DNA from: Candidatus Bathyarchaeota archaeon
GTDB taxonomy: Archaea > Thermoproteota > Bathyarchaeia > Bathyarchaeales > Bathycorpusculaceae
DNA: 64,000 bases
Direction: 5' to 3'
Assembly (NCBI GenBank): GCA_963806535.1
Contig: CAWDYC010000011.1
Location: forward strand, 64,001-128,000
Part shown: positions 1,978 to 32,378 of the stretch, one piece after another
Numbering within the stretch: the first letter of the stretch is position 1
Layout of the letters: every line of letters starts with the position of its first letter
The notes under the pieces: generated by a model
Database searches by the model: none
Told to the model about the DNA's origin: nothing
Seen by the model: only the letters and a program-made list of their open reading frames with translations
Position numbers and translations under genes: made by a program

Positions 1978-2033
1978 AGTCAACAAACTTTGACTTAATT
2001 TCAGTCAAGAGACCTTTACGAGAAGCCTTATAA
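1978..2033 (+). promoter_or_regulatory. Motif-A array copy 1 plus BRE/TATA
   Basis: AGTCAA-caaact-TTGACT-taatttc-AGTCAA-gagacc-TTTACG-agaagcc-TTATAA; ATG follows at 2058. Confidence 0.8.
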
Positions 2034-2057
2034 CAAAAACCAGTCCCAAATGTAATC

Positions 2058-2834
2058 ATGGGAAGTATAGGCAAGAGTTTCGCATTAATTCTAATTCTAA
2101 TCCTAATAATACCTATCTTAAGTCTGAGTCTATCGTTTGTTAAACCGGCGTTTGCCCAGACAGCGGCTACACCGTCTACTCCAGAATTCACCATTAAGCT
2201 AGGTGTTGCTTCCAACGATGTACCTTCCACTTACTCATTAAATTCGAGTTCAGGACAGACAATAGCGCAACCTGGTTACCATGAAGAGTACACCACTATA
2301 GAATTGGTTATCAAGAATCAACCTCTCGTATTCACCAATTATCCGGGTTGGAACGGTGTAGGGTTCTTCTACAACGTTCGCACAACGACCACACCGGATA
2401 CTGGCAGCTGGAATGAACTCTATAATGCTCAGGATGGATATTTAATCCCAGCAAACAGTTCGTACACAACCGTGTCTATTCCTTTCAAAGGTAATGACAT
2501 GATTGATATTCAAGTTGAAGCGATGATAGGACAAATTGTTAAACTACAAGTATCTGACCCTAACACTCCAAGCCACTGGCGTGATGCAGGTACCAGTCTT
2601 TTTGAAGGTCAATTTAGCGGATGGAGCGCTAATCAAACAGCAACCATTAGCGACACAATTACCTACTTAGAATCTTCTCCAACAGCAACCCCAGCTTTAC
2701 CGTCAGCTAATACTGCTACTTCCTCATCGACTCTCTTTTTGATAATCGCCATAACAATCATAGTAATCGCATTCCTGTTAGGCATTATAATTTCATTAGT
2801 TATCTATTTTAGAAAACGAATAGTCACTAAGTGA
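2058..2834 (+). CDS. Surface protein with signal peptide and C-terminal TM anchor
   Basis: Signal peptide ending KPAFAQ, PSTPEFTIK, IDIQVEAMIG, SGWSANQT, S/T/P linker, TM and RKR tail. Confidence 0.85.
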   Translation: MGSIGKSFALILILILIIPILSLSLSFVKPAFAQTAATPSTPEFTIKLGVASNDVPSTYSLNSSSGQTIAQPGYHEEYTTIELVIKNQPLVFTNYPGWNGVGFFYNVRTTTTPDTGSWNELYNAQDGYLIPANSSYTTVSIPFKGNDMIDIQVEAMIGQIVKLQVSDPNTPSHWRDAGTSLFEGQFSGWSANQTATISDTITYLESSPTATPALPSANTATSSSTLFLIIAITIIVIAFLLGIIISLVIYFRKRIVTK

Positions 2835-2864
2835 CCTTTTCCCACGGTAGCAACAAACTTAATA

Positions 2865-2950
2865 AAATTGTGTCACTCAAAAAATAGTCAATAAACTTAC
2901 TAATTTCGGTAAACCGCTTAGTCAAGAAAGCTTGACGAAAACTCTTTTAT
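2865..2950 (+). promoter_or_regulatory. Motif-A array copy 2 (long form) plus BRE/TATA
   Basis: aaattgtgtcactcaaaaaat-AGTCAA-taaac-TTACT-aatttc-GGTAAA-ccgctt-AGTCAA-gaaagc-TTGACG-aaaactc-TTTTAT. Confidence 0.75.
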
Positions 2951-2983
2951 CGCTAATTACAAAAAAAGACTATTAGAGTTAGA

Positions 2984-3538
2984 ATGAATAAAAAAATAAT
3001 ATCCGCAGTAGCTTTGGTAACTATTTTGTTTGCAACTGTATTCACTGGCACGTTTGTTTATTATAACTCTCAAATTGCAAATCTAAAAATGAAAATCTCA
3101 AGCCTTCAAGCTCAAATAGCAGAAAAGTCGTCCATAAATCTTGTCACAGCATTAGGGGTAACTGAAATAGCTGCTGAATACGGTCTGGGCGGTATTCCAC
3201 CTTATAATCACCTTTGGATTGATGGCACAGTAACAAATCAGGGAGGAGGATTTGTATATTACACAGGATTGCATGTCCTTGCTTATGCTGCCAATGGAAC
3301 TTTGGAAATAAACATGACTGTCCCCATAAATCCGTTGAATGAGAACTCTCAGACGAACACTGGGTGGTACGGCACTGATGAAAGAATTTACGCTTATCTT
3401 TCGAGCTATGGGGATTATTCTTCGTACCAACGTGGAAATTTACGCAGTGGGGAAACATCGGATGTTAATATCCACATTTTTCATGAAGGCATAGTTTCTA
3501 ATTGGACTATAACGCCAGTTTGGACAAATTCACCGTAG
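2984..3538 (+). CDS. N-terminally anchored exported protein with short coiled coil and Ig-like (FxLYD-like) domain
   Basis: N-terminal TM, QIANLKMKISSLQAQI coiled coil, LWIDGTVTNQG...GLHVLAYAANGTL beta-rich domain. Confidence 0.75.
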   Translation: MNKKIISAVALVTILFATVFTGTFVYYNSQIANLKMKISSLQAQIAEKSSINLVTALGVTEIAAEYGLGGIPPYNHLWIDGTVTNQGGGFVYYTGLHVLAYAANGTLEINMTVPINPLNENSQTNTGWYGTDERIYAYLSSYGDYSSYQRGNLRSGETSDVNIHIFHEGIVSNWTITPVWTNSP

Positions 3539-3607
3539 TCAAGACCCCAAAACAATTTCGGATTTGGTTCAAGTATCTCAAAAACTTTGGTAAAAAGTGT
3601 GCCACTC

Positions 3608-3705
3608 AAAAAGAATTCTGAGTGGTTTGCGAAAGACCAAGCTTAATTGAAAAAGGAGGTTTAGTAGAAGTTGCGTGTTTCTTTGCGTTTCTCTGCTTCT
3701 TCATA
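3608..3705 (+). repeat. Shared ~80-100 bp segment, copy X
   Basis: Close match to the reverse complement of 26202..26281, apart from an 18-bp length difference. Confidence 0.85.
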
Positions 3706-3895
3706 GAAACGCAACCTTAGAATTGGGGGCGGTCCCAAATTGTTTGCTTCACCAAGTTCAGAGAGCGTCATAAATTTCTCATAAATAGCAATCAACAAAT
3801 AAGAAAATAGGGGTAAGCAATAAGTGAAGAAGCCAGCAGTAAAAAATTACTAAGGCTAAAGGCAGATGACATCCAGCACACCAGCGTTCCAAGCA
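3661..3895 (-). pseudogene. 3' remnant of a membrane-protein gene
   Basis: Manual translation ...FTAGFFTYCLPLFSYLLIAIYEKFMTLSELGEANNLGPPPILRLRFYEEAEKRKETRNFY*; the 5' part is disrupted and abuts vapC. Confidence 0.4.
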
Positions 3896-3900
3896 TAGGA

Positions 3901-4272
3901 TTAGACGATTTTTATGTTGCTACCAACACTGGCAAGTTTTCGATCCCTTGTTAGCAATACCTCATCGTGCGCCAATGATATGCCGGCAATAAGCAAATCG
4001 TTCTCATTAATCATTCTGCCGGAATCCTTAAGCTCTTTAAAAAGAATCGCGGCTTTTCTTGCAGCGTCACTATCGAATGGATAGATAGTTAATTCCGAGA
4101 GGAAATCTTCTGCCAGCTGTCTCTTCAGCTTTGTCTTATGCTTAAGCAATTCATACTCAGTTATGCTGGTTGTCTTTATTTCTTCCTCGTTGGCGATTTC
4201 TTGTATTAAGGAAACAAGCTTTTCGTCGCCGGCTATGAAATCAATGATAACGCTTGTATCGATTAACATCAT
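3901..4272 (-). CDS. vapC: VapC PIN-domain toxin
   Basis: LIDTSVIID, ITEYELL, INENDLLIAG and LLTRD PIN motifs. Confidence 0.93.
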   Translation of the reverse strand: MMLIDTSVIIDFIAGDEKLVSLIQEIANEEEIKTTSITEYELLKHKTKLKRQLAEDFLSELTIYPFDSDAARKAAILFKELKDSGRMINENDLLIAGISLAHDEVLLTRDRKLASVGSNIKIV

Positions 4273-4505
4273 TATTCCTCTTCGAATGATCTGCCGTAAT
4301 TTGCTTCCCTTTCAGCAGCAATTTGTATTTTTAGCTGCTCAAGTTTTTCCTTTTCGTTTTTCATAACTCCTGCAAATTTCATTATGTCGGTTTTCTTTTT
4401 TGTTGAGCAGAGGCTTTCTTTTATTACTTCGGAGAAGCTTTTTTTGCCTTTTCGCTTTGATAGAAGTTCGTAGACTTCATTTGAGACTGAAATCTGTCGT
4501 GCCAT
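4272..4505 (-). CDS. vapB: VapB-family antitoxin (probable start 4505)
   Basis: MARQISVSNEVYELL...KKSFSEVI DUF217-type N-terminus; translationally coupled to vapC. Confidence 0.88.
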   Translation of the reverse strand: MARQISVSNEVYELLSKRKGKKSFSEVIKESLCSTKKKTDIMKFAGVMKNEKEKLEQLKIQIAAEREANYGRSFEEE

Positions 4506-4724
4506 CTTAGTTCCTTCAATACATAGTGTATACATACTTACTGATAAATCTTCTCAGATGAGGCATCTACCTGAACGATCAGTAGCCCGATTAGCCGAAA
4601 TATGCATTTTAGTACATGTTTAGGTCTGGTATTTTTTACAAGCTATGGAGAAACCGATACTTGGGATAAGAGATCAACAGGGTAACTTCCCAAACTTAGT
4701 TTTAAGGCATCTCTCAAAAACAGC

Positions 4725-4780
4725 AGTCAAAAAACCTTGACTACATTTCAGTCAAAAAACCTTTACGAGAAGCCTTATAA
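4725..4780 (+). promoter_or_regulatory. Motif-A array copy 3 plus BRE/TATA
   Basis: AGTCAA-aaaacc-TTGACT-acatttc-AGTCAA-aaaacc-TTTACG-agaagcc-TTATAA; similarity to copy 1 continues to the ATG at 4805. Confidence 0.85.
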
Positions 4781-4804
4781 CAAAAACCAGTTCCAGATGT
4801 AAAC

Positions 4805-5688
4805 ATGGGTAGCTGCGGCAAAGTTTTCGCAATATTCTTTATTCTAATTATGGTCATCTCAGCTCTAAATCTATTGATGATAAAACCCGCATGTGCGCAG
4901 TCAATACCCACACCCTCTATTCCCCAGTTCACCATTAAGTTCGTAAATGCTTCCTAAGTTTAACTACAACAAATTCTTATACTGGAGTAAATGAAACTCA
5001 GCTAATTATTAATAACTCAATTGAAATTACAATAAATAACCAGTTCTTTGACAATTCAAACAACAAAATATATTACAATATTCGAACTAAACCTCACTTT
5101 TCAGAAAATTGGACTGAAGTTTACCCAATACAAAACAGAACTAGTTCCTACAATGGAGATGGCACTTTCTCTTTTGCATGGTATATTGACGATTCTTCTC
5201 CGAAATCAAATTCAAGTTACACCACTATTGCTTTCCCTGTTGTAGCAACTGAATATTATTCAGAATCAGGCTTTGATATTCAGAGGTACTATTCTGGAGA
5301 TATAAGTCAAGAAGGTAGATACTTTGCGTTTTTACATGGTATTCCAGCCAATGCTCAAATTGATTTCCAAGTAGAGGCATTAGTTGGGCATAATTCTACA
5401 TACTGGTATATTCAACATCCTCTTTACCCTACGATTGGTGGATATTCAGCCCCTGCCATTGCATACGACTTAACAAGTGGTTGGAGTAATGCACAAACAG
5501 TAACTATAAGTTCAACTTCTGGTCACCAACTTCAACTCCTACCGTTCCAGAGTTTCCGCTTGTTAGCAATTTTGCCCTTGTCACTCTTAGTGCTCTTTAT
5601 TGCGTTTAAGCAAAAGCTAAAGAAACCAAATCTCCTAGGTTGGACAATGAGTGACCAGCGAATAATGGATGTGTTAGCTCATGGCTGA
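4805..5688 (+). pseudogene. Frameshifted paralog of 2058..2834 with PEF-CTERM-like tail (missed by ORF track; 3' end approximate)
   Basis: MGSCGKVFAIFFILIMVISALNLLMIKPACAQSIPTPSIPQFTIKFVNAS, then after frameshifts IYYNIRTKPHFSENWTEVYP...QIDFQVEALVG...SGWSNAQTVTI...PTSTPTVPEFP, a hydrophobic stretch and a basic tail. Confidence 0.75.
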
Positions 5689-5932
5689 ATCCGTAAATTT
5701 TGAACCCAAAAGTTTAGGCGATTTAAGCCAGTTTCTGGAAGAAAATAAAGACACTTACCATGAAATCTGGGTAATTATAACAAATAAAAAGGCTGCTTTT
5801 CCTCAGGTAGTATCATTCAACGATGTCGTGAGTGAAGCAAAAAAACAAGGGCTAATTGATAGCCGCATAAAAAATGTTGATGAAAAACGTTACATGATTC
5901 GTTTGACAAAAAGATTAAAGCCTGAAGTTTGA
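5681..5932 (+). CDS. YdeI/OmdA-like N-terminal domain protein
   Basis: EIWVII...VSFNDVVSEA...GLIDSRIKNVDEKRYMIRLTKR resembles the YdeI N-terminus. Confidence 0.55.
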   Translation: MAESVNFEPKSLGDLSQFLEENKDTYHEIWVIITNKKAAFPQVVSFNDVVSEAKKQGLIDSRIKNVDEKRYMIRLTKRLKPEV

Positions 5933-6059
5933 AAATTTGAAAATAATGTGCTAAATTTGTCAATGCCGTAAAATCAGTACCTAACGAATAATTGTGCTAA
6001 TTGTAAGGCTAAGATTCTGTAATTTATGGTTTGAATCCAGAAGGAATAGAATACCTCTC

Positions 6060-6384
6060 ACTTCCGAATAGATGAACCAATACCAGAAAAACCAAAAGGA
6101 ATTCCATACACCTTTAAACCTAACACTAATGTTTGGAATTGCCCTCAATGTGGAAGTTAGAATCCAAACGATTATGAATTCTGTTATGTATGCCGTATAG
6201 TTCCTAAACCAAAAGAAGCCTTAACGATAAAACAGTAATTCTTCTTTTAACTGAAATTTGAAGGGGTAATATTTGGATGGTTAATATTGATAAAGAAATA
6301 GACGTTCCTTGTTAGTACTGTGGACATAAAACTAAGATCAGGATTTCTGGAAGTCTACCTATTGTACCTAAAAATATAGTATAA
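6060..6384 (+). pseudogene. Decayed small zinc-finger ORFs
   Basis: VWNCPQCGS*NPNDYEFCYVC (RanBP2-like, TAG at 6158) and MVNIDKEIDVPC*YCGHK (TAG at 6313). Confidence 0.5.
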
Positions 6385-6450
6385 GAAAAAATCAAAAATT
6401 CTTCAAGTTTCTTTAGTTTACTTTACCGAATATTTTTGTTCTTCGTAACA

Positions 6451-8226
6451 TCAGATTTCTTGTTCTGATAATAATTTAAATTCAAACCTATCGGCATTAA
6501 GGAAGTTTCTCAACCTTGCTTTCTCAATCTCTAAAGTCCACTTTTTAAATTCTCCCTGGGGAATGACGTTTTGGCGTATAGCATTTTGAATATTATCAAT
6601 TAATTGCCTTATATCACCCGTATCGTTCTCAAAAACCTTGTATTCCCATGGGTTTACCCCATTTCTTAAGTTGATAAAATATTGTGATAAGGCTTCAAGT
6701 TTTTTAATGCTTTTAATTATTGGATTCAGCCTATCTTTGAACTTTGGTGTTAACAATTCAAGTTTTCTATTATTTTCATCAAGTAAAGGGTTAATCCATT
6801 CACTAACCACTTTTCTTAGATCGTTTCTTTCATCTGAAAGTCCAAACAAAAAGCAATCCTGATGTGAGTTTGTTATTTTGAGATTATCTACACTTAGAAG
6901 TGTTAACGAGTCATTTACTCGCTGTAACCAAATATCCTCAAATCCATCTTTGGAGATTATAGAATGCAGCAAGCTTCTAAAGCTCATTTGAAGTCTTGTT
7001 TGTGAAGGATTAAACTCAAGCTCGTTCCAGCTTTTTCTTATTTTCTTTTCTAAAATGCTTTGAGCTTTTGCCGTAAACTCTTCTTGTAAACACGTTCTTA
7101 ATAGAGATTGCCAATCAGGTGTATCTCCAGATTTCTCCTGTTCTAAAAACCCCTTTTCAGTTCTAATAATATTTTGAAGAGCTCTTAAGTAATTGTTTTT
7201 CAGCAGATGAATAATAGTTGAAAAAGGATAAGGTAAGCAGAAAACCTTTCCTGATAATCTTGAGAGAGCTTTTGTGTTTTTGTCAACGTATCTAAGTTTT
7301 GTTTCATAAAGTTCTTGAGCGTTAGGGTCAACTATAATCACGTTTAGGTCTTCATTTGCTCTTGCAGCATCCCATAACATATGTATGATATATTCATCTC
7401 TAAACGAGTATCCAACAACTACTAAGAATTTTGCTCTTTGAAAAAGCGTTTTTTTAAACATTAACTGTAAATCTGTTAGTGGTTCAACGTACTCTGATTT
7501 TTGTGCTGGATAAATTAGCAAAGGCTTTACATCTTCGCCATAGATAAGTCTCAAATCTATAGGGTCTTCAAACATTTCCACGAAAGCAGAAACAGGAATT
7601 TTAATACATTCTTTTGTCTTCTCATTTTGATACCATATTACTGAACCATGAAGCTTATAGTGAAAAACATCATAATTTTTGAAGTTATTTTCATTCCAAG
7701 TAATATCAAACCCATCAGTATAGCTACGATGATTTAGATAGCAAGATTGTTCAATACATGTATCATAGTTTGTTGAAAAAATTTCAACAGGTGAATCAAA
7801 GCTAAACAACTCTTGCAAATATTCAAGATTTTTTTGGTTTTCAATCACCACTTTTCTTCTAATAAAATTTTGGAGGAACCTTTCAATGAATAAAAGCTCT
7901 GATTGCTTCAGTTTATATTTTAACTCAAGGTTATTGTAAAAATAAAGAAGCGGTTCTTTATCCCTTCCAATAAGACGGCGAAGCGTGTCTAAGAGTTGTT
8001 CAACATCTACGCTTTTTTTGTCTTCACCCAAGAGCTTAACATTATACTTCTCTCTTATTTTCAAAATTCTAGATAAAAGTTCACCAAATTCAGGACGTTC
8101 ATTATTGACATAACTTTCAAATTCTTTGACAAAACTGTAAGTATCTGGAACGCCAGCATCTACAGATGCTCCAGCACCAAAAAGAAAAACCAGTGCTTCT
8201 CTGCGTTCTTTCTCTGTTGTACTCAA
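6451..8226 (-). CDS. SIR2-like (SIR2_2) domain protein, putative NADase defence effector
   Basis: FLFGAGAS, FSTNYD, YKLHGS and VVVGYSFRDEYI motifs; long helical C-terminus; AT-rich. Confidence 0.85.
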   Translation of the reverse strand: MSTTEKERREALVFLFGAGASVDAGVPDTYSFVKEFESYVNNERPEFGELLSRILKIREKYNVKLLGEDKKSVDVEQLLDTLRRLIGRDKEPLLYFYNNLELKYKLKQSELLFIERFLQNFIRRKVVIENQKNLEYLQELFSFDSPVEIFSTNYDTCIEQSCYLNHRSYTDGFDITWNENNFKNYDVFHYKLHGSVIWYQNEKTKECIKIPVSAFVEMFEDPIDLRLIYGEDVKPLLIYPAQKSEYVEPLTDLQLMFKKTLFQRAKFLVVVGYSFRDEYIIHMLWDAARANEDLNVIIVDPNAQELYETKLRYVDKNTKALSRLSGKVFCLPYPFSTIIHLLKNNYLRALQNIIRTEKGFLEQEKSGDTPDWQSLLRTCLQEEFTAKAQSILEKKIRKSWNELEFNPSQTRLQMSFRSLLHSIISKDGFEDIWLQRVNDSLTLLSVDNLKITNSHQDCFLFGLSDERNDLRKVVSEWINPLLDENNRKLELLTPKFKDRLNPIIKSIKKLEALSQYFINLRNGVNPWEYKVFENDTGDIRQLIDNIQNAIRQNVIPQGEFKKWTLEIEKARLRNFLNADRFEFKLLSEQEI

Positions 8227-8361
8227 AGCTTTTCCCAGACTATTCTTAATGACTGTGTAAAGTTATAACATTTACCAAAGTTGTTAGTCTTAAGTTAAGT
8301 TCATCTAATGATAAATCTTAAATCTGCATAGAGTGGAATAGACGAAAAGAGAAAAAGCAAA

Positions 8362-8502
8362 ATGGCTACTTACAAACAGATTCAAGCCTATGTAAAAAAC
8401 AAACACGGTTTCCTGCCTAAAACTTGCTGGATTGCTCACGCAAGAGAGGTTTATGGTCTTCCATCAAGAAAAGCATGGAACAGACTTTTAAAAACTAACT
8501 GA
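8362..8502 (+). CDS. Small conserved-looking hypothetical protein, probably 3'-truncated
   Basis: MATYKQIQAYVKNKHGFLPKTCWIAHAREVYGLPSRKAWNRLLKTN (46 aa, below the ORF cutoff); resembles small ATYK.IQ.YVK..GF.PKTCWIAH proteins. Confidence 0.55.
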   Translation: MATYKQIQAYVKNKHGFLPKTCWIAHAREVYGLPSRKAWNRLLKTN

Positions 8503-8698
8503 GTTCTTAACTCTAAGTTTCCAGAGTACATAAGAACGTAGATCTTAAGCAAGAAAAACTATAAGTTAGGTATCATAGTAAAGAAAGAAGTTAGTTTAAT
8601 GCGAAGGTTGAACTTAAGAAATTTCAATACTAAAAACATTGATACTTTTAAGTTCCACACCCACATTAAATAGGAAACACAAGGAAGATGCGGGCAAT

Positions 8699-9787
8699 TT
8701 GGATATAGAAAAGAAAATTGAGTTAATCTGCAGACCGCCAACAGAAGAAGTAGTTACTCCAGAAGATTTGCGTCAGCTTTTGGAAACAGAAGAGCATCCT
8801 GTAGCCTACAACGGCTGGGAGCCTTCTGGCTTGGCACATCTTGGAACAGGCGTTATCTGCGCTTACAAAATGAAAGACTTCGCCGAAGCAGGCGTCCATT
8901 TCAAAGCTTTTTTGGCGACTTGGCATGCATGGTTAAACAATAAGCTTGGCGGCGACCGAGTACTTATTCGCAAAGCCGCTGAGCTTTTCAGGCATTCATG
9001 GTTGTCGCTTGGTGTGCCCGGAGATAAGGTTGAGTTCATTTATTCTGACGAGCTCTACAAGGATATTGATTATTGGGCTAAAACAGTCATAATTTCAAAG
9101 AATCTCACCTTAGCCCGAACTACAAGAACACTTGAAATCGCTGGCAGAAAAGAAGGAGAAGCACACTACGTCTCAGATTATCTTTATACACCAATGCAAG
9201 TTGCTGATATTTTCGAGATGAAAGTGAAAATCTGCCAGTTAGGCATGGATCAACGAAAAGCAAACATGGTTGCAAGGGAAATCGGCGAAAAAGTAGGCTG
9301 TTGGAAACCAGTCTGCGTTCATCACCACCTGCTTCAGGGCTTAGAAAAACCTTCGATTTGGCCTATTCCTGAGGGTCAAGAGAAAGAAGCTGTTGCCTCA
9401 GCGAAGATGTCTAAGAGCAAACCTCAAACCTGCATTTTCATCTATGATACGCCCGAGGAAATTAAGCAGAAAATGAGCAAAGCGTTCTGTCCTGAAAGAA
9501 CCGTTAAATTCAACCCGATAATGGACATTTGCAAGTACATAGTTTTCCGAGAAAAACCCGTTTTGAAGATTGAACGCCCAGCCAAATTTGGCGGCAATAT
9601 CGAGTTTCAAAGCTTCCAAGAACTCGAATCAGCCTATGCGGAAGGCAAACTGCATCCAATGGACCTCAAAAACGGCGTTGCAGCCGAACTTGCAGATATA
9701 TTAGAGCCTGTTAGGCGTTACTTTGCAAATAATATGGAAGCGAAGGATTGTTTGGAGACTGTACGCCAGGCAAAGATAACAAGGTAA
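8699..9787 (+). CDS. tyrS: Tyrosyl-tRNA synthetase (archaeal; probable TTG start 8699)
   Basis: AYNGWEPSGLAHLG, YTPMQVADI, GMDQRK, KMSKS, LHPMDLK. Confidence 0.95.
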   Translation: MDIEKKIELICRPPTEEVVTPEDLRQLLETEEHPVAYNGWEPSGLAHLGTGVICAYKMKDFAEAGVHFKAFLATWHAWLNNKLGGDRVLIRKAAELFRHSWLSLGVPGDKVEFIYSDELYKDIDYWAKTVIISKNLTLARTTRTLEIAGRKEGEAHYVSDYLYTPMQVADIFEMKVKICQLGMDQRKANMVAREIGEKVGCWKPVCVHHHLLQGLEKPSIWPIPEGQEKEAVASAKMSKSKPQTCIFIYDTPEEIKQKMSKAFCPERTVKFNPIMDICKYIVFREKPVLKIERPAKFGGNIEFQSFQELESAYAEGKLHPMDLKNGVAAELADILEPVRRYFANNMEAKDCLETVRQAKITR

Positions 9788-9792
9788 AGCGT

Positions 9793-10206
9793 TTGTCTAC
9801 AAGATTGAAAGACAAAGAGGAAAAAATCCAGCAAATAATAGAACAATTAACTAGACGAATCAGCTAAGGGAACACTGGTTGTTGTTGAAGGCAAAAAAGA
9901 TGAGTTAGCGCTTCAGAGAGTTAGGCGTTAGCGGCAAAATTTTTACTGTGAAGACAGGCGGCAAATCCTTTTTGCAAGCAACTGAGGAAATAGAAAGATT
10001 AGGTATCACCGAGGTTATTCTTCTGTTGGATTTTGATCGAAGAGGAAAAGAAGGCACTTTGCGTCTTAAAATACAACTTGGAAAGGGCAAAAATCAAGCC
10101 AGACATGAGGTTTTGGCTTGAGTTGAAAGCGTTGGTTGGAAGAGATATCCGATGCATTGAAAGCTTGCAATCCTTCTTGAGTACTCTTCAAGAAAAAGTT
10201 AGCTAA
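9793..10206 (+). CDS. Small TOPRIM-domain protein (UPF0292-like), about 3 frameshifts, absent from ORF track
   Basis: Manual translation gives VVVEGKKD...LRELGV...VILLLDFDRRG...DIRCIESL directly after tyrS. Confidence 0.75.
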
Positions 10207-10461
10207 GCTCATATCGAACTATTAAATTCTTAAAATTTTTGTATTTTTTAAGAATAGGTTGTTTTTTCTTTTTTCAAAATACATATAGTTCTTAATGCTG
10301 CAACCTGACCAAATGGTCCGATAATTCAAAATCCAAAAAATAAAAAAAAGGTGATTACTCCCTGTTACAGCCATTAATTTGGAAGATTACTAGTAGTCTA
10401 TATTCTCGCTTCAAATTTGTTAAATATGATTTCTTCTAGACTCTTTGATCGATAAAACACG

Positions 10462-10722: not shown

Positions 10723-10763
10723 TTTAGCTCTAAATAATCTCCTCATGTCAATTGTGACTACTG

Positions 10764-11763: not shown

Positions 11764-11772
11764 AGGGATTTT

Positions 11773-21097: not shown

Positions 21098-21144
21098 AAA
21101 TTTAAGGGCAATCTGGCCCAATGAAGAATAATTTTAATATAAAG

Positions 21145-25120: not shown

Positions 25121-25547
25121 GAAACTTGTTGATTAAGCCATTAGCTATTAAGAGTTTTGCTTCGGCTTTTTCTACGGATTGTTTGTTTAGAGATTTTTGG
25201 CTTTGTTTGAATTTTTTTGGTTGCAGTTTGGTTTGGTTGTTTTTTTAATCAGAACTTGAAACGGTTGTGCGTTGTGAAGACGCCAAAAGAAATAGAAAAA
25301 TCTTTCAGCGACTACCTATAGGTCAAAATATATACGTTTTGTCAGTACAATTGTATATACAGACGTTATTTAATGATTTTGTCACGATTAAGAACAGCAA
25401 CATTTGCGTTGCCATTTTTGAACAAAGAAATTCAGACTGTTTTTCAAAAGCAGAATCTAAATCCTTTACAGACTGCCTAAACAGAAATCTCAAGACTGTG
25501 TGGCCGCAGTAATGGTTTTAGGATTAAAGCAAAGCGTAAACCAAATA

Positions 25548-25862
25548 TTATTTTTTGAGTCCACCAAGTTTCTTGGTGAGCTCATCAAATATGAGATATT
25601 TCTTTTCTTTGCCTAAATGAAAGACAACTTTAGAAACCATTTCTTCTGAGATGGTAAAGATATAGTTTAATTTTATGACGCTGTCTTTTATTGCGCCTTC
25701 ACTCTTAGTTAGCGGTATTCCTTTCATCTTGAGATTGCTCGTTATGCCGGCTATCACAACGTTTCCTAATTCTTCGAACAGAACTACTGCTGGCCTAGTC
25801 TTCACTTCAGCGGTTTCTGTAAACTGTACACTTGCAACGATAATATCTCCAGGTTTAAGCAT
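25548..25862 (-). CDS. mazF: PemK/MazF-family toxin
   Basis: PGDII...F...VKTRPAVVL...IAGITSN...DSVIKLNYIFTI. Confidence 0.85.
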   Translation of the reverse strand: MLKPGDIIVASVQFTETAEVKTRPAVVLFEELGNVVIAGITSNLKMKGIPLTKSEGAIKDSVIKLNYIFTISEEMVSKVVFHLGKEKKYLIFDELTKKLGGLKK

Positions 25863-26082
25863 CTTTCCAAGCCTCATCTTCCTCGTTGTCCCATAATTCT
25901 TTCATTTTTGCTTGCTGAATCTTGTGAATAAACTCGTCATATTGGCTTTTTTTCTTGGAATCTTTTGCTATCTTTATTAAATCGGAAATAGTTTCATTGT
26001 ATGTTTCTCTTGGATACTTTCTAATGCTTTTTAGCTCCTTAACGACTGATTTCTTAAGCTGTATTGTAGTGGCTTCTTTCAT
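25855..26082 (-). CDS. Putative antitoxin
   Basis: TTIQLKKSVVKELK..K.YPRETYNETI N-terminus, acidic LWDNEEDEAW tail; overlaps the toxin start. Confidence 0.8.
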   Translation of the reverse strand: MKEATTIQLKKSVVKELKSIRKYPRETYNETISDLIKIAKDSKKKSQYDEFIHKIQQAKMKELWDNEEDEAWKDA

Positions 26083-26201
26083 TATACATCGCCTATAACT
26101 CACTATAACAAATTATATATAACTTTCGCATCATGGCTCAACGCAACTTTCAATAAAGGACTCACCTTAAGCCTATATACAAAGATTAAGTTCTACGCTT
26201 T

Positions 26202-26281
26202 TATGAAGAAGCAGAGAAACGCAAAGAACCACATAACTTCTACTGCGCTTGGTCTTTCGCAAACCCTCAGAATTTTTTTTG
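26202..26281 (-). repeat. Shared segment, copy Y
   Basis: Reverse complement matches 3608..3705. Confidence 0.85.
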
Positions 26282-26295
26282 AAATACTGCAAATT

Positions 26296-26964
26296 TTACG
26301 CTACCTTCGTTTTTCGATGCCTTCTATAAAGCAATAGAGATGCAATGACAGCCACTATAACTATTGTAATAACAACTAAAATTGTCGAAGTTGGAAAAGG
26401 TTCTGGTTTAGTTAGTTTTTGTGAGTACATCTCATTCAAGAAGATTAAAGTGGCAAAACTATGGGAACCGTCATGTGTATTAACGTAGACCGTCAATGTA
26501 TGGTTTCCATAAGGAATTTCGCTGAAATTTACAGTTATTGAGGCATTAATTGAGTCTGCACCACCAGTTGGCTGGATGCCGAATATTTGGTGAATACCGT
26601 TAATCCAATCTGCTTGGTAATAAACACTGTTAATTACCCAAAAATACGAAGCTACGTTTACGCTTAATGTAAAGTTGTTCGTTTGCAATACAGTTTGATT
26701 TTGAGGAAATACTATTTCACAGATTGGAGGTATATGTTCAAGTTCATCTGCGGGCGGCTGAATAACAGATGAATTTGTGTGCCAAAGTGTAAAAGAAACA
26801 GTTGGTTCTGGAGGTGTCAAAGTTGCAATAGGTGTAGGTTCAAGAGTAGGTGACAAAGCAGTGGCTGTATAAAGGAGCCCTTTTTGTTGATTAGAAAAGT
26901 TAACTGCGACAAAAGCTAAAGCAATTATTGTGATAAGCGTTAATGCAACTTTTTTTTTCTTCAG
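26296..26964 (-). CDS. Surface protein with Ig-like domain and C-terminal anchor (5' frameshifts; start approximate)
   Basis: KKKVALTLITIIALAFVAV signal upstream of ORF 26296..26856; PYGNHTLTVYV Ig strand; PEPFPTST, TM and RRHRK tail. Confidence 0.75.
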   Translation of the reverse strand: MKKKKVALTLITIIALAFVAVNFSNQQKGLLYTATALSPTLEPTPIATLTPPEPTVSFTLWHTNSSVIQPPADELEHIPPICEIVFPQNQTVLQTNNFTLSVNVASYFWVINSVYYQADWINGIHQIFGIQPTGGADSINASITVNFSEIPYGNHTLTVYVNTHDGSHSFATLIFLNEMYSQKLTKPEPFPTSTILVVITIVIVAVIASLLLYRRHRKTKVA

Positions 26965-27000
26965 GAGAACCCCCTGATTTAAAAGAATATGAAGGCGTGA

Positions 27001-27043
27001 CTTTTAGCTCTCCCTAAAGAACAGGCTGTTCCACCAGAAGAAC
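27001..27043 (-). promoter_or_regulatory. Motif-B promoter module copy 1
   Basis: Minus strand GTTC-N8-GAACA-N3-TGTTC-tttaGGGAGAGC-TAAAAG; 36/43 identical to 30575..30617. Confidence 0.7.
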
Positions 27044-27055
27044 AAGTGGTTTGAA

Positions 27056-27131
27056 TTAAAAGGCTTCTCGTAAAGGTCTCTTGACTAAAATCAGTCAAGG
27101 TTTATTGACTATTTTTTGAGTGACGCAATTT
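27056..27131 (-). promoter_or_regulatory. Motif-A array copy 4 plus BRE/TATA
   Basis: Minus strand aaattgcgtcactcaaaaaat-AGTCAA-taaacc-TTGACT-gatttt-AGTCAA-gagacc-TTTACG-agaagcc-TTTTAA. Confidence 0.85.
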
Positions 27132-27259
27132 AATATGACAAATCAGATGATTCTATATGAGTCTCTAAATTTTAGAGCCAATACACAACATGTAAGAAGG
27201 TCCAAGCCAAAAAAGTCTTATATGTACTTGATTTTAACATACAGAAGAGCGCGATCAAT

Positions 27260-27640
27260 ATGGTGGATAATACAGAGACAAAAATTAAACAAGATCTGTT
27301 TGCTGAAATCCAAAATTTAGAACAAAATTATAAAGTTATCAAAAGTTTTCTTTCCGGAACAGACTATGACGCCATAACTCTCGGCGGAACAATTCAATCC
27401 TTCAAAGACGGCTTAAGTCGAGCCAGCGCATTTGTTCTTGCCCTATACAACCTCAAAGGAAAACGAGTTAACATTCCATGGGAACCACTTTTTACCAGCT
27501 TAGATTACGCTTTAGCCACAGTCACCGTTTCTTCATCGCCAAAACAGAAAACAGCAGTCAAAACTATTCTGTCAATGTCTGAAGAACAGATTGGGCAAGT
27601 ACTGTCTTACTTTGCCGCTCTGAAAGAATCGCTAAAATAA
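27260..27640 (+). CDS. Hypothetical helical protein
   Basis: 126-aa ORF with upstream TTATAT box and protein-like composition. Confidence 0.7.
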   Translation: MVDNTETKIKQDLFAEIQNLEQNYKVIKSFLSGTDYDAITLGGTIQSFKDGLSRASAFVLALYNLKGKRVNIPWEPLFTSLDYALATVTVSSSPKQKTAVKTILSMSEEQIGQVLSYFAALKESLK

Positions 27641-27933
27641 AAACGGTTCTTTTATTCAATATAGCTCTTCTTTTGATTGAAAAAAGTCTCTATTAATAAC
27701 TTGACCTTTTTTTGAAAAATTGTGTAAAAAAAATTCAATGCGTCATAGTTATTAATTTTCAAAGTAAATCGAGTGCCCATTTATTGTTGGGAACTAAAAT
27801 TTAGTGCACACACACAAAATTTTTTAGATTAGAGTTTTCTGCTCGGCACATTCTACTGGTGTATAGGCGCGTCAGAGTTTAAGGCAAAAGTTATTATCTG
27901 TTGCTCAAAGACAACAGCAGCGGAAGTACTTGA

Positions 27934-28482
27934 GTGAAAACAGGTAAAATCCTGAAGAGCTTCAACGCCAAAGACAGAAGAAATGTAATTCTAAGGACGC
28001 CAAGAATGGAAGACTTAGACGATTTATTAGATCTGATCAACTCGCTTGTTGATGAGAATGCGGAGATTTTGATTACTCGGAAATTTACGCGAGAGGAAGA
28101 GGCGGAATGGCTTACTAATGCGTTGTTACGACTGGAAAAGAATGAGGTTTTCTTTCTTGTTGCAGCAGTGAATGGGGCGGTTGTTGCTTCGTCCGACCTT
28201 CAGCTTCAAGATGAAAGTCAAGAATGCACTGGATTGATAGGAATAATTGTGAAAAACGGTTACAGGGATTTGGGAATTGGGACTGAGATTATGAAAACTC
28301 ATTTTGAGAAGGCAGTGTTTTTTGGGTTAAAGGTTTTGACTGTGAATGTTTTTGCCACGAATCAGCGGGCAATTCACGTTTACGAAAAAGCTGGGTTTTT
28401 TCAAACGGAGAGAATTTCGCAGAAGCATTTTAGACAAGGTAGATTCATTGATGAAGTCATAATGAAAAAATCAATTTGTTGA
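27934..28482 (+). CDS. GNAT N-acetyltransferase
   Basis: YRDLGIGT, VFATNQRAIHVYEKAGF. Confidence 0.9.
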   Translation: MKTGKILKSFNAKDRRNVILRTPRMEDLDDLLDLINSLVDENAEILITRKFTREEEAEWLTNALLRLEKNEVFFLVAAVNGAVVASSDLQLQDESQECTGLIGIIVKNGYRDLGIGTEIMKTHFEKAVFFGLKVLTVNVFATNQRAIHVYEKAGFFQTERISQKHFRQGRFIDEVIMKKSIC

Positions 28483-28619
28483 ATGTTGCTGGATTAAATT
28501 TTAATGGACATACTCAAGCCTTTAATTCATTTGCAGATAGGCTTTCCAGCTGAGTCACTATCGTGTAGGGAAAGACGACCCTAAGCGAAATAATTGCATA
28601 AAAGAAAAAGTTTTAGCTT

Positions 28620-29045
28620 CTATGCGAAGCTAACAAATTTTTTCGGTTGATTATTCGTTGCAAAAGTCCAGAAGTGAGCTGTGCATTTGATGATTTTAAA
28701 GAGTATCAGCCCTGGGTTTTCCGGTGTTAGTCCTGCCTGTTTTAGGAAGGGTCTGGCGTCAAGAAGTTTCTTTTTCATTTCTACGTCATTAATGAATTCA
28801 ACTGTGCCTGTTACTCTCATTTGCTGCATTTCTTTGCTTTTAGGGTTAAAGAAGCATACTTCAACTTGAGGTTTAGCTTTCAACTGTTTATAGATGTCTT
28901 TTCCAGCGGCAGAGCTGTAATATAGACCTGACTTGTCGGCGTACCAAAGTTGAAATCCTCTGACTCGAGGTTGTCCACTATCTATAGTTGCTAAGAAGCC
29001 TATTGGATTTTCATTTGCAAACTTGATATATTCGTCAAAATCCAT
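28620..29045 (-). CDS. Pyridoxamine 5'-phosphate oxidase-family flavin-binding protein
   Basis: FLATID.GQPRVR, KDIYKQLKAKPQVEVCF, QMRVTG. Confidence 0.88.
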   Translation of the reverse strand: MDFDEYIKFANENPIGFLATIDSGQPRVRGFQLWYADKSGLYYSSAAGKDIYKQLKAKPQVEVCFFNPKSKEMQQMRVTGTVEFINDVEMKKKLLDARPFLKQAGLTPENPGLILFKIIKCTAHFWTFATNNQPKKFVSFA

Positions 29046-29197
29046 CTAAATCACCAAATTACTATTTCATCACCCTGAAAGTAATAACTTTTGGTTTACT
29101 ATATGACGGATTCGCTTCGTTTTTTAAATTCTGGTGCTTAGACTATGGTGTGCATTAAATTTTAATCCCACCGACATATGTTAAGGATAGGTGTTTT

Positions 29198-29320
29198 TCA
29201 AAACCAGTTTTTTGACAATATTTCTCTGCAAACTTTGCAAACACTAAATATTGTTTCGCTTTCATAGACAATTTCGGTCTCAGTTGAACTGCACGAAGGA
29301 CATTCATCATTAGTTTTCAT
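29198..29320 (-). CDS. Zinc-ribbon microprotein (40 aa)
   Basis: MKTNDECPSCSSTETEIVYESETIFSVCKVCREILSKNWF with CxxC...CxxC. Confidence 0.55.
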   Translation of the reverse strand: MKTNDECPSCSSTETEIVYESETIFSVCKVCREILSKNWF

Positions 29321-29779
29321 TTTTAAGCACTTTCTAAAATTTGTTTGCGCCTGAGCTTTTGGCGTTTCTTTTGGTTTTTCATTTAGTATTCTCTTGATGG
29401 AAGCTTGTAAACATGCTTTTGTGTTCCAGTTTCTGCGTGTCTTGGTTAATTCTTTGAGGTTTAACGAAAATAAGTCTTATGAATCAATAATATGAATCAC
29501 GCACTTTCCTTAGGAAATGTATGTTTATTGAAATATGTGTCTTAACTTCTAATTAATACATACATTATCTTACCTACCTGCCACAGAAAGAAATTTTTTT
29601 AACTCTTCCAGTAGGTTCAATTTAATATCTAAAACCGTCAGAAACGTAAATGTGTGTGGGATTAAATTTTAATCCCAAACCCAAACGTCCGCATCCACGC
29701 GCCCGTGTATGTGTCTGTGTCTCTAACTATCTGTCGCTTGCTCTGTCAATCTGTCCCTGTAAGCCCATGTCTGTCACTC

Positions 29780-30541
29780 TCACCGTTTGTGTTTCTTGAA
29801 GTAAACCAACAAACCAGCAACTACAACGGATGTTAATGCGCCTGAACTCATGGCAACTGTTGAAGTTGGAAAAGGCGCGGGTTGTGATATGGTGAAGTTT
29901 ATTGTTTCAGAGGGTCCAATGTTTCCGGCAAGGTCTTGAGCGTAGACTGTAACGTTATGCTCTTGAAAAGACAAATTGGCTAATGTTGTGTTTCCAGCAA
30001 CGGTTACATTGTCCTGTCCATCTAAAGAATAACCAATCCATGAGGTAGGTTCATCTATTGTGAAATTTAATGACAAGTTGTTTTGGCTGTAAGTTTTGTT
30101 TTCAGGTGATAGATTTGTTATGATTGGAGGTTTTCCGTCATCTATCGTAAAGTAGGCTGTAGCATTATCCAAAAAAGTGTGCGGTGGAGTAGTGTCCCAT
30201 TGAATTTCTTCATAAACAGTAACGTTGTGTGAGCCCTCCGGCAATTTTGGTATAATTCCTGACCCTGTAACTGTTATTTGAAATGACATGTTGTGAGTTT
30301 GAGTTATAAGAGGAATTGAAAAATTGTCTTTTCCGTCTACGCTGTAAGTCATCGAATAATAGATATTATTTGCCCCTAAGCCACCAGAACGTACACTTAG
30401 ACCTAACGGCGAGCCAGAATTATAGGTACTGTTAGTAGGATATAAAATGTCAACAGCTTTGACCACCTTGACAACCTGAACCCCAAAAATAAGTACGAAA
30501 AGCATCAAGAATAGAATTAATGCCAATGCAGTTTTCTTCAT
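29780..30541 (-). CDS. Surface protein with two Ig-like domains and C-terminal anchor
   Basis: Signal peptide; YSVDG...GSHNVTVY and GYSLDG...HNVTVYAQD repeats; PAPFPTST, TM and KKHKR tail. Confidence 0.85.
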   Translation of the reverse strand: MKKTALALILFLMLFVLIFGVQVVKVVKAVDILYPTNSTYNSGSPLGLSVRSGGLGANNIYYSMTYSVDGKDNFSIPLITQTHNMSFQITVTGSGIIPKLPEGSHNVTVYEEIQWDTTPPHTFLDNATAYFTIDDGKPPIITNLSPENKTYSQNNLSLNFTIDEPTSWIGYSLDGQDNVTVAGNTTLANLSFQEHNVTVYAQDLAGNIGPSETINFTISQPAPFPTSTVAMSSGALTSVVVAGLLVYFKKHKR

Positions 30542-30574
30542 GCACCCTCACACCAAACTATTTGTGGTAAGCGG

Positions 30575-30617
30575 CTTTTAGCTCTCCCTAGAGAACACTT
30601 TGTTCCGCAAAAAGAAC
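30575..30617 (-). promoter_or_regulatory. Motif-B promoter module copy 2
   Basis: 36/43 identical to 27001..27043; TAAAAG lies ~34 bp before the ATG at 30541. Confidence 0.7.
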
Positions 30618-30676
30618 GAAGAATAATAGCAGAAGAGATTGAAACGCATCTAACATTTCCCCCCAAGAATTTTGAT

Positions 30677-30722
30677 TTCTCGCAAAAATCTTTTGACCGC
30701 GATAAGTTAAAGTTTGTTTACA
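30677..30722 (-). promoter_or_regulatory. Degenerate motif-A array copy 5 overlapping the upstream stop codon
   Basis: Minus strand TGTAAA-caaact-TTAACT-tatcgc-GGTCAA-aagatt-TTTGCG-agaa; no TATA box retained. Confidence 0.55.
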
Positions 30723-32275
30723 ATTGACGTTTGTGTTTTTTTTTGAAGTAAACCAACAAACCAGCAAATACAGCCATTAAACTAAGTAACATGGAAATTG
30801 TAAATGAAGGAAACTCTGGGATTGCGATTTCTGGAATTAGTAAGGGGTTCATGAGCGGAAAACGGTCTGTATTGTTATTGTAAATTACGTAGGGTGTGTC
30901 GCCTATTCCTGAGGCGTCAATTTCTGTGGCGTTCGGATACTTTGTTAGATAGTCGCTCCAGTAGTTCCCTGCTGTGCCATTGTCCCACGTGCTCACCGAT
31001 ATTGGGAGGACATTTGGAAAAGGCTCAAGAACGATGTCGAACCACTCTTTGGTGTTGTTTATGAAATTGTTGTTGTAAAGAATGTTGATTCCGCTATATT
31101 CAGTGTAGATGCCCGTGGCGCTGTTAGTTATGTTGTTTCTAGTTACGATGTTTGAAGCTGCTGCACCAAAGTAGATGCCGTTGCCGTTTCCTGTTATCAC
31201 ATTTGAGTCAATGACGTTGTTTGCGGAAAATGTGCCTAATCCCGCGCCCAAACCGATGCCATTTTCGTTATTTGCAATTATGTTTTTGCTTATTGTGTTG
31301 TTATTAGATGCATCTAAACTGACGCCAAACAGATTGTTTGAGAACGCGTTGTTAATTATTGTTGAGTTCTCGGTGGAACCCTAAGTATACGCCTTCAGCG
31401 TTGCCAGACAGGTTTAGGTTTGAGAGAGTTATGTTTGTACAACCTATGAGGGCAACGTATCCAGCGTCGATAGGAATGGACCTATCATGCTGGTTGACCC
31501 AATAATAGATTGGCTTACCATTCACCTTGTTTGAAGTGTCTACATCGACGCCTTTGAGGGCAGTAATTCCTTGAACATTAAAGACGTGGAAGCCGTAGGT
31601 GTTGCCGTTCAGAGTGTTATTTCTTAAAACACTGCCTGCGCCACCACCAACGAAAAAGCCGTACTTGTTATCCGTTAACGTGTTTCCAAAAACATTGGTG
31701 TTGGTGAAATATGTTAGTGTGATTCCTACATTATTGTTTGTAACGTCATTACCTGAAATGATGTTGTTCGAACCGGCGACTGCGCTCTCCAGTTCAATTC
31801 CCGATGTGTTGTTTAGCAAGTTGTTTTCAACGATTCTGTTGTTGGAAGACAATCCAGATATTTCGACGCCAATGAGGTTTCCTTTAAGATTATTTTTAGA
31901 GATTATACAGTTGTTAGAACCAGTAACGAGAATGCCGGCTCTTCCCAGAAATCCTTGAATTACTACGTTTCTCACTGTCACGTTACTTCTCCCTTCAATG
32001 TTTATTCCAACCAAGGTATCGCCGTTTGCTTGAAGAGTATGCCCTGCACCGTCGATTACAATATTGTTGGTTTGAACTAAAATGGTGCCGAAAATGTCAC
32101 CGTTAAAGGTGTATGTGTTTCCGTTTCTTTCAAGCAAGTTTGTGTTTGGTTCAACACTTCCATCAGGCTTAATTGTGAGGTTAAGCGGTTCTTGTGCCTT
32201 CACTTGTTGACTGACAGTTATGCATGATGATGTTAGGAAGAGAATAACAAACAGTAGAACGAAACCTTTACCCAT
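30718..32275 (-). CDS. NosD/CASH parallel beta-helix surface protein with PEF-CTERM-like tail (frameshift near 31375)
   Basis: IKPDGSV..IVIDGAGHTL, Asn-rich helix repeats, GKPIYYWVN, GNYWSDY..GIGDTPY..DRFPL, IPEFPS, TM and KKKHKR. Confidence 0.88.
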
Positions 32276-32308
32276 GTCACATCGAGTTCTACTTTGGAGT
32301 TTTTCGTA

Positions 32309-32378
32309 ATAAAAGGGTTCTCGTCAAGCTTTCTTGACTAAAAGGTTTACTGAGGTTAGTCAAGGATTATTGACTAAC
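32309..32378 (-). promoter_or_regulatory. Motif-A array copy 6 (long form) plus BRE/TATA
   Basis: Minus strand gttAGTCAA-taatcc-TTGACT-aacctc-AGTAAA-cctttt-AGTCAA-gaaagc-TTGACG-agaaccc-TTTTAT. Confidence 0.85.

Follow-up and report, generated by a model that had tools for sequence, protein, structure and literature searches.

A palindromic promoter module ahead of exported-protein genes in Bathyarchaeia and a candidate winged-helix regulator

What purpose is served by an array of AGTCAA and TTGACT half-sites that recurs six times between positions 1978 and 32378 of one stretch of archaeal DNA, each time ahead of a gene for an apparently exported or membrane-anchored protein? The stretch, called the window here, is 64,000 nucleotides of a Candidatus Bathyarchaeota archaeon, G000:C11:64001-128000, where G000 is the analysed genome (2.95 Mb, 40% G+C, 12 contigs given C-numbers), other G-numbers are genomes, and L-numbers are loci. 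Bathyarchaeia are among the most abundant uncultured archaea of sediments, peat, and soil, and their gene regulation is almost uncharted. An earlier note on the window had proposed either a cooperative activator platform controlling the surface proteome or a dual promoter and recombination site. Based on computational analysis of sequences, we assign a probability of roughly 0.7 to the arrays being part of a promoter module and serving as the platform to which a lineage-specific DNA-binding regulator of the dimer type binds.

Operator arrays and their register with the core promoter

Inspection of all six places in the window recovered the sequence that had been described, comprising five full arrays and one degenerate copy (copy 5). 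According to a frequency matrix, the hexamers belong to a longer unit of 18 bp, the palindrome AGTCAAG-N4-CTTGACT, which T and A frequently flank. Typical arrays paired a near-perfect distal palindrome with a half-degenerate proximal operator whose promoter-side arm reads TT(T/G)ACG, while a long form (copies 2 and 6) carried an additional half-site, GGTAAA or AGTAAA, inside a 36-37 bp interval. With at most one mismatch, AGTCAANNNNNNTTKACK matched 17 times in the window compared with 1.96 +/- 1.69 times in 100 shuffles, none of which reached 17, and 15 of the 17 matches fell in the five full arrays. The gap of exactly 7 bp between the last half-site and a TATA-like box, reported by the earlier note for five copies, was present in copies 1, 2, 3, 4, and 6.

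Array 1 (+ strand) consists of the palindromic distal operator AGTCAACAAACTTTGACT (1978-1995, matrix score 25) and the proximal operator AGTCAAGAGACCTTTACG (2003-2020, score 27), followed at 2021-2033 by AGAAGCC, which resembles a transcription factor B recognition element (BRE), and the TATA-like TTATAA (2028-2033), 7 nt past the operator. Array 3 (4725-4767, +) has the same layout, with operators at 4725-4742 (distal) and 4750-4767 (proximal) and TTATAA at 4775-4780 (+), as does array 4 on the opposite strand (27069-27110, -; distal 27093-27110, proximal 27069-27086), with TTTTAA 7 nt past the operator (27056-27061, -). In the long-form array 2 (2886-2937, +), a degenerate distal operator (2886-2903), the half-site GGTAAA (2908-2913), and a proximal operator (2920-2937), which alone passed the matrix, precede TTTTAT by 7 nt (2945-2950, +). 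The other long form, array 6 (32322-32378, -), joins a distal operator (32358-32375), the spacer half-site AGTAAA, and a proximal operator (32322-32339), with scores of 30 and 29, to TTTTAT 7 nt past the operator (32309-32314, -); the perfect 9-6-9 inverted repeat singled out previously, gttagtcaa-N6-ttgactaac, lies here at 32355-32378 (-). Copy 5, CGTCAA..TTTAAC..GGTCAA..TTTGCG (30677-30722, -), begins at the stop codon of the preceding open reading frame (ORF), scored below the matrix threshold of 12, and had no T-rich box at +7, in keeping with its description as degenerate.

Beyond the window, AGTCAA-N6-TT[TG]ACG matched 25 times in 2.95 Mb, with about 1-3 matches expected (6-mer count 2187). 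An operator matrix was built from a fixed seed with one refinement, a looser iteration having drifted to A-rich noise, and was compared with the reversed genome as null. It returned 142 hits versus 16 at a threshold of 14 and 130 versus 9 at a threshold of 16, so the genome scan that had been suggested did reveal enrichment. At a threshold of 12, used for clustering, 85 distinct sites formed 55 clusters, 30 of them two-site, with centre-to-centre spacings of 24 bp (15 clusters), 25 bp (4), 32-33 bp (9), and 36 bp (2). By our own crude gene calls (3195 genes), 42 of the 55 clusters were intergenic. In both orientations of every cluster, the 10 nt following the operator were then checked for a TATA-like hexamer; 35 of 55 clusters had one in one orientation, at an offset of exactly 7 in 33 of the 35. 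The operator in these 33 ended upstream of the TATA-like box and overlapped neither the box nor the start region. The bases in between read (G)AGAAnC, which is BRE-like, and are followed by CTTTTAT; the proximal operator abuts the BRE-like GAGAA, the last bases being common to both. Information content was high between the first base of the operator and the end of the TATA-like box, except in the central spacer, where it was low, as it was in the upstream flank and the leader, in agreement with the earlier impression of conserved arms and variable spacers.

The distance from the start of the TATA-like box to the ATG was 29-32 nt in 13 of 33 modules and 39-45 nt in 10. Because of the usual archaeal distance from TATA to transcription start, these two classes would correspond to leaderless and short-leader mRNAs. 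The module thus reads: distal 18-bp palindrome, 24/25 or 32-36 bp centre to centre, proximal AGTCAAGnnnnnTT(T/G)ACG, 7-nt BRE-like stretch, CTTTTAT, and ATG about 30 or 40 nt on. Arrays spaced by 32-33 bp had the proximal operator AGTCCAGAAAYCTTGACA (C3:377447, C4:456892, and C4:486205, as well as C3:307277, C5:172485, and C5:219419), and three of them have the spacer CTAAAAAATCACTGCTT in common. Such arrays may be duplicated promoters forming a sub-family, or else a second type of site.

Such a block could also define a promoter class for an alternative general factor, with the palindromes secondary. G000 has four TFB genes (C3:365466, C5:233203, C11:174720, and C8:40233, one with an open frame of only 185 aa) and two TBP genes (C8:7472 and C4:147565), and the stretch CGAGAAnnCTTTTAT is itself highly conserved. 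We nevertheless consider this improbable, given that similar BRE/TATA words occur at tRNA promoters, that information peaks in the palindromic arms, and that the distal palindrome lies 24-36 bp further upstream, beyond the reach of TFB and TBP.

Target genes and occurrence across genomes

Proteins encoded downstream of the arrays (those of at least 60 aa) were predominantly secretory-like, defined by our own heuristic as having a hydrophobic segment within the first 45 residues: 29 of 31 had such a segment compared with 652 of 3195 called genes (20%; Fisher, 1.8e-18), as the earlier note had anticipated for signal-peptide genes. In 28 of the 31, the whole protein contains no more than two hydrophobic segments, which suggests secreted or anchored, not polytopic, targets. 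The module was carried by approximately 7% of the secretory-like proteins of G000 (28 of 405, same heuristic). Pfam families among the targets were unrelated to one another and included NosD/right-handed beta-helix domains above cut-off in three (window gene 6, L001, and L024) and below it in L005, four PQQ/BamB-like beta-propellers, one Kelch propeller, weak Ig/fn3-like matches, and one PMT_2 glycosyltransferase, while many targets had no Pfam family. The proposal that no copy precedes a housekeeping gene held in the window and came close to holding genome-wide, where the exceptions were a GT4 glycosyltransferase gene 148 nt downstream of an array and a transcription-factor operon in G000, along with a hemA-like gene in two relatives. 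The latter, glutamyl-tRNA reductase-like by eye and not encoding a surface protein, stands behind an array in two other Bathyarchaeia metagenome-assembled genomes (MAGs) (L089:4348-5631, - strand, and L148:3-740, - strand), and in L089 a short upstream ORF separates it from the array.

Many targets ended in a membrane segment and a basic tail, some preceded by PEFP (PEFP, membrane segment, and KK, by eye), and G000 encodes a member of the archaeosortase/exosortase family (PF09721, 43.5 bits, G000:C7:288800-289585). We did not retain the targets as PEF-CTERM substrates: the NCBIfam model TIGR03024 matched none of 10 targets at E <= 0.01, and over the whole genome its single match, at the end of the array gene C6:103053-103136, scored 19.9 bits, below the cut-off of 23.

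Of 24 other species of the genus, 13 had the combined operator and TATA pattern; none of 16 genomes from other families of the order had it, and the pattern read backwards, as a control, gave 0 in all 41 genomes. A scan of 185,579 species returned at least 111 loci with the pattern. Among the 80 matches listed, nearly all were Candidatus Bathyarchaeota or Bathyarchaeia MAGs from peat, bog, fen, and soil, some labelled Bathy6; of 115 downstream ORFs in the loci returned, 104 were secretory-like, with a modal TATA-to-ATG distance of 30-31 nt (39 of 115). Both the module and its secretory target class therefore recur in other Bathyarchaeia, where a scan had been recommended. Of 121 family genomes, 16, representing 9 of the 70 genera sampled, were enriched in the palindrome (at least 5 copies, control 0), and within the genus the count of relaxed palindromes ranged from 0-3 to 33 per genome (controls 0-5). 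G040, from another family of the same order, had 12 relaxed palindromes versus 2 in the control, several being perfect AGTCAAGAAACCTTGACT, and none of the operator and TATA pattern. Two further loci, L081 and L061, carry the module on contigs binned as Acidoferrum and Methanocella; their 67-78% nucleotide identity to G000 across about 2 kb makes it probable that both contigs are misbinned and come from Bathyarchaeia.

Some targets are paralogues sharing promoter, leader, and signal peptide (those of copies 1 and 3, C3:309529, and C6:103944), which could mean that the arrays have no dedicated function and that their similarity was inherited when one promoter was duplicated together with paralogous genes. 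This we find scarcely credible, the least probable of the alternatives weighed here, in view of the unrelated target families, of arms that are kept while the central 4-6 bp, the inter-operator spacers, and the leaders vary, and of a module retained across genera and before a cytoplasmic regulator gene (below).

All of the window copies precede genes for apparently exported or membrane proteins, as had been claimed, the downstream N-termini being hydrophobic and signal-like. Target gene 1 (2058-2834, +) encodes 258 aa with the signal-like N-terminus MGSIGKSFALILIL.., a C-terminal membrane anchor, and no Pfam family, its ATG lying 30 nt past the TATA start; target gene 2 (2984-3538, +; ATG at 2984) encodes 184 aa with an N-terminal membrane or signal segment and no family above cut-off. 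Target gene 3 (4805-5680, +; ATG at 4805) begins with the signal-like MGSCGKVFAIFF.. and its open frame ends at 50 aa. Similarity to the paralogue G000:C6:103110-103976 extends to approximately 5571, and a PEF..membrane..KK tail is encoded near 5550-5620; target gene 3 is probably a broken gene. Target gene 4 (26296-26965, -) follows a leader of about 100 nt and has a hydrophobic N-terminus (..KKKKVALTLITIIALAF..). Its start lies beside an A9 run, where no ATG, GTG, or TTG was found in frame (around 26941-26965, -), and its paralogue has an ATG; the start may be broken, misread in sequencing, or part of a slippery tract. Copy 5 is followed by a gene (29780-30541, -) for 253 aa, MKKTALALILFLML.., with no Pfam family. 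Downstream of copies 4 and 5, the leaders (27001-27016 and 30575-30590, -) have in common the element ..GTTCT(T/C)TAGGGAGAGCTAAAAG.., whose 16-base core TAGGGAGAGCTAAAAG occurs in G000 only there; they are paralogous long leaders of two signal-peptide genes. Target gene 6 (31352-32275, -; ATG at 32275) encodes 307 aa with a signal-like start and a NosD/right-handed beta-helix domain, and the following ORF (30718-31251, -) holds the remainder of that domain and a membrane anchor, so that the NosD/beta-helix gene behind array 6 (30718-32275, -) appears split in two.

A candidate regulator and the direction of control

Among the few non-secretory ORFs downstream of arrays in related loci was one, present in both L085 and L108, for a winged-helix protein of 328 aa. 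G000 has two homologues, which we name TF-A (C5:43368-44345, 326 aa) and TF-B (C3:295949-296863). Upstream of TF-A, the order is array, 78-aa ORF, and TF-A, the array being among the best of the genome (scores 29.2 and 28.3), and the same order occurs in G013 and L085 as well as in L108, a locus that ends within the gene. Among 18 further regions with a TF-A-type gene, 10 had a two-operator array and GAGAACGCTTTT(T)AC 100-230 nt before it, which together with G000 and G013 amounts to 12 species of the genus; four had a single variant operator (TGTCAAGAAATCTTTACA and AGAACCGTTTTAT) approximately 550 nt upstream, and four, one a pseudogene, had no array. None of the 22 TF-B loci had one. A copy upstream of a regulator gene, which the earlier note had hoped for, does therefore exist. 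The motif-poor G006, G017, and G018 each had a single exact palindrome, about 200 nt upstream of the TF-A-type gene, and in G120 the only match with at most one mismatch was located about 200 nt upstream of the TF-A homologue gene. When a site persists at a regulator gene and is scarce in the rest of the genome, the pattern usually points to a factor that controls its own gene through that operator, although the palindrome could instead be the most conserved target of another factor.

In an alignment of 20 full-length homologues, C28, C31, C39, and C43 were invariant (20 of 20), and these cysteines, including the CxxC motif C28-x2-C31, lie N-terminal to the winged helix. Pfam matched HTH_45 in TF-A above cut-off (2.6e-6), TrmB and HTH_5 in TF-B as well, and HTH_24 in TF-B only (1.3e-4); AsnC_trans_reg was absent from TF-A. 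The NCBIfam ArsR/SmtB metalloregulator model HTH_metalloreg matched TF-A at 4.5e-10 and 39 bits, below its curated cut-off of 55. A structural model of TF-A from a 20-row alignment (pLDDT 80.5; 35 for the single-sequence prediction) contains three winged helices (approximately residues 64-133, 161-214, and 226-280) and a long C-terminal helix. The best-matching folds were single-domain winged-helix proteins of the ArsR/SmtB type (CzrA, SmtB, CadC, and BigR): VIA-align superposed residues 60-149 on CzrA with a Z of 10.1 and an rmsd of 1.9 over 84 residues, HlyU and SmtB also reaching a Z of about 10. Foldseek returned no PDB match to the model at E <= 0.001, neither program found a full-length structural relative, and a PDB sequence search gave nothing below E 0.2. 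The predicted two-copy complex scored 0.00, which counts neither for nor against dimerisation.

TF-A, perhaps jointly with TF-B, is our best candidate for the regulator of the arrays, at even odds or slightly better. Membrane-anchored winged-helix proteins, of which G000 has eight paralogues of one type and several of another, had also been considered and were dropped, occurring near arrays (4 kb) in 10 of 150 loci, a frequency close to chance. Secreted proteins are interspersed in one cluster of them (G000:C4:378336-384029, L151; 142-244 aa, 2-5 membrane segments).

Given the 11 bp between half-site centres, each palindrome would bind one dimer, the proximal of which would touch neighbouring bound TFB/TBP, and the regulator would activate by recruiting them. 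TF-A would also autoregulate via a top-scoring array at its own operon. Across species, the site would be almost restricted to the promoter of the regulator in some, and the module would have spread to dozens of surface-protein promoters in others.

Several observations weigh against this scheme. By eye, BRE and TATA at the array promoters resemble those before the 39 tRNA genes of G000, with no sign of a weak core promoter in need of an activator. The centre spacing of 24-25 bp would put the two dimers on different faces of the helix, which sits awkwardly with cooperative binding, and ArsR/SmtB-type proteins are mostly repressors, typically autoregulated. The phyletic profile of the regulator does not separate motif-rich from motif-poor species of the genus: TF-B was present in 23 of 24 species whatever their motif count, and a TF-A-type copy was not found in G003, G005, G007, G014, G015, and G021, although 20 and 17 relaxed palindromes (controls 5 and 1) were counted in G005 and G007, respectively. 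Neither was a TF-A homologue found at E <= 1e-5 in the motif-rich G085 (16 palindromes) and G137 (6), nor was one found in G040, with its 12 palindromes versus 2. Other genera had a single homologue without an array in its own locus, unrelated sites occurring only at the edges of L172 and L178. Family genomes whose homologue is at least 49% identical were motif-rich in 12 of 17 cases, versus 3 of 104 for the others, an association confounded by relatedness, which alone would give it. Finally, one transcription-factor gene among approximately 35 target units is by itself unsurprising.

Part of this evidence would suit negative control by the same protein at the same sites, with proximal dimers covering the BRE and excluding TFB until a metal or redox signal sensed by the cysteines de-represses the surface genes and the regulator gene itself. 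The bases shared by the proximal operator and GAGAA, core promoters that look as good as those of tRNA genes, and a protein whose closest fold and four invariant cysteines recall autoregulated repressors all fit such a scheme. Occlusion, however, needs no exact register, and in 33 of the 35 oriented modules no operator covers the TATA-like box or the start. The available portion of PMC12162507 describes SurR of Thermococcales, an ArsR-type protein with a CxxC redox switch, as activating when bound upstream of TATA, repressing when bound downstream, and activating its own gene. We regard repression as possible and rather unlikely, and lean modestly towards activation through recruitment of TFB/TBP, because all sites lie upstream of BRE/TATA in one exact register, as recruitment would need and occlusion would not, and because SurR, the nearest described analogue, activates both from upstream sites and at its own gene. 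For the cooperative activator platform put forward in the earlier note, the enrichment, the fixed 7-nt distance to TATA, the secretory targets, the conservation, and the array at a regulator gene all speak in its favour, while the sign of control is only inferred.

Insertions around the arrays and relation to known systems

Comparison across 40 species of the genus places the window's array genes in insertions between conserved backbone genes. The interval 1950-5661, which contains arrays 1-3, their genes, and a VapBC pair, was missing, with its flanks adjacent, from G013, G163, G173, G162, G009, G003, G160, and G012, and the intervals 25162-27204 and 27640-32948 were much shorter in relatives. 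The lack of these insertions in most relatives, the inverted arms flanking a centre of 4-6 bp, a left junction (1946-1977) that ends within about 30 nt of array 1, and similarity between paralogues starting exactly at the first half-site (1978 and 4725) would all fit arrays that were, or doubled as, site-specific recombination sites at which surface-gene cassettes are inserted, excised, or swapped. The second option of the earlier note nevertheless fared poorly, as did its expectation of gain and loss breakpoints at the motif. In G000, clusters occurred only 5' of genes, at one fixed distance to TATA and ATG, and never at the 3' ends of cassettes; the synteny junctions near arrays 4 and 6 are approximately 90 and 570 nt away and, like that of array 1, not inside repeats; and no recombinase or integrase was among the protein families recurring within 4 kb of 150 array loci, a survey that included no family-based integrase search. 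Similarity starting at the array would also result from selection on a binding site in old paralogues. Tyrosine-recombinase core sites and integron attC sites resemble the arrays in having inverted arms around a short spacer and adjoining variable genes, and differ from them in the fixed promoter geometry, the 5'-only placement, the junctions off the repeats, and the lack of a recurrent recombinase neighbour. Recombination at the arrays thus seems very improbable, and the module appears to mark accessory surface genes without being the breakpoint itself.

Other features accompany these insertions. Directly before the G000-specific insertion with arrays 1-3 lies a sharp-edged element of about 250 nt (1695-1946, +), which is 80-95% identical across the genus, compared with 70-80% in the coding flanks, contains no ORF of at least 80 aa, and is preceded by the promoter-like AACATTTAACC. 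RNAalifold predicted 51 pairs, six with compensatory changes, including one long-range stem. Rfam had no family at gathering score in window positions 1-34000, and 1690-1950 gave only a match at chance level; the element probably represents a structured RNA of a type not yet described. Inside the insertion, array genes 2 and 3 flank the VapBC-type pair (3901-4535, -; PIN 5.9e-15, VAPB_antitox 9.4e-13), which in G013 is located 12 kb away together with array 3, at 95% identity. A second interval absent here in relatives (approximately 5944-8646) encodes a 591-aa protein with a SIR2-like domain (6451-8226, -; PF13289, 1.7e-9), possibly a defence gene.

The findings suggest that the cell surface is a regulated and strain-variable trait, the latter because the target genes sit in insertions. 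They also yield a clean promoter architecture, a set per genome of approximately 30 surface or secreted proteins that are putatively co-controlled, and a named candidate for the regulator, which could be expressed and assayed on synthetic DNA with no culture needed. Within one genus, the regulon grows from little beyond a self-regulated gene to dozens of promoters. Quite tentatively, and with odds well below even, we suggest that a cysteine-cluster triple-winged-helix regulator acts as a self-activating on/off switch for variable surface proteins of peat and soil Bathyarchaeia and that its module is portable, so that new or duplicated genes of strain-specific islands join by carrying or capturing it. 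If true, a portable module would account for the range of the regulon within one genus, from the promoter of the regulator itself to at least 30 promoters.

Parts of this arrangement have precedents. Ptr2, a Lrp-family protein of Methanocaldococcus jannaschii to which the earlier note had pointed, binds two palindromic sites just upstream of BRE/TATA and activates by recruiting TBP. The arrays likewise consist of two palindromic sites just upstream of BRE/TATA, whereas the motif is another one, dozens of promoters are served, and TF-A is devoid of the Lrp/AsnC ligand domain according to Pfam. As far as the accessible parts of PMC5937170, PMC5512572, and PMC2241852 describe them, TFB-RF1 of Pyrococcus furiosus, EarA of Methanococcus maripaludis, and GvpE at its upstream activating sequence in haloarchaea also occupy activator sites directly upstream of the BRE, and EarA controls a surface structure, the archaellum. 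The placement of such archaeal upstream activating sites, next to BRE/TATA without overlapping TATA or start, is that of 33 of the 35 modules. Unlike the array modules, those systems serve one or a few operons and involve weak BREs (TFB-RF1) or non-palindromic repeats, where here a two-palindrome array stands in one exact register at approximately 30 promoters with an ordinary-looking BRE.

The closest parallel is SurR. According to the same portion of PMC12162507, it forms homodimers whose chains each contain at least two ArsR-like winged helices, its DNA binding is governed by a cysteine motif, and its short palindrome occurs in many promoters. TF-A, for its part, has an ArsR/SmtB-like domain, invariant cysteines with a CxxC among them, and an array ahead of its own operon, and the sites of the module all lie upstream of TATA. 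SurR was absent from the PDB sequence matches to TF-A at E <= 1 and from the matches listed in the fold searches, and the two systems differ in motif (GTTn3AAC for SurR, AGTCAAG-N4-CTTGACT here), in regulon (hydrogen and sulfur metabolism versus surface proteins), and in architecture, TF-A having three winged helices and four cysteines that are N-terminal to them, not inside the first. The open-access full-text literature yielded neither the motif nor a Bathyarchaeia regulon; PMC2396416 was discarded as a precedent, its AGTCAA/TTGACT occurrences being primers only. As a kind, then, a regulator platform that lies upstream of BRE/TATA and works with a self-regulating winged-helix factor is already known from archaea, while the motif, the target set, the architecture of the regulator, and the expansion from species to species are new.

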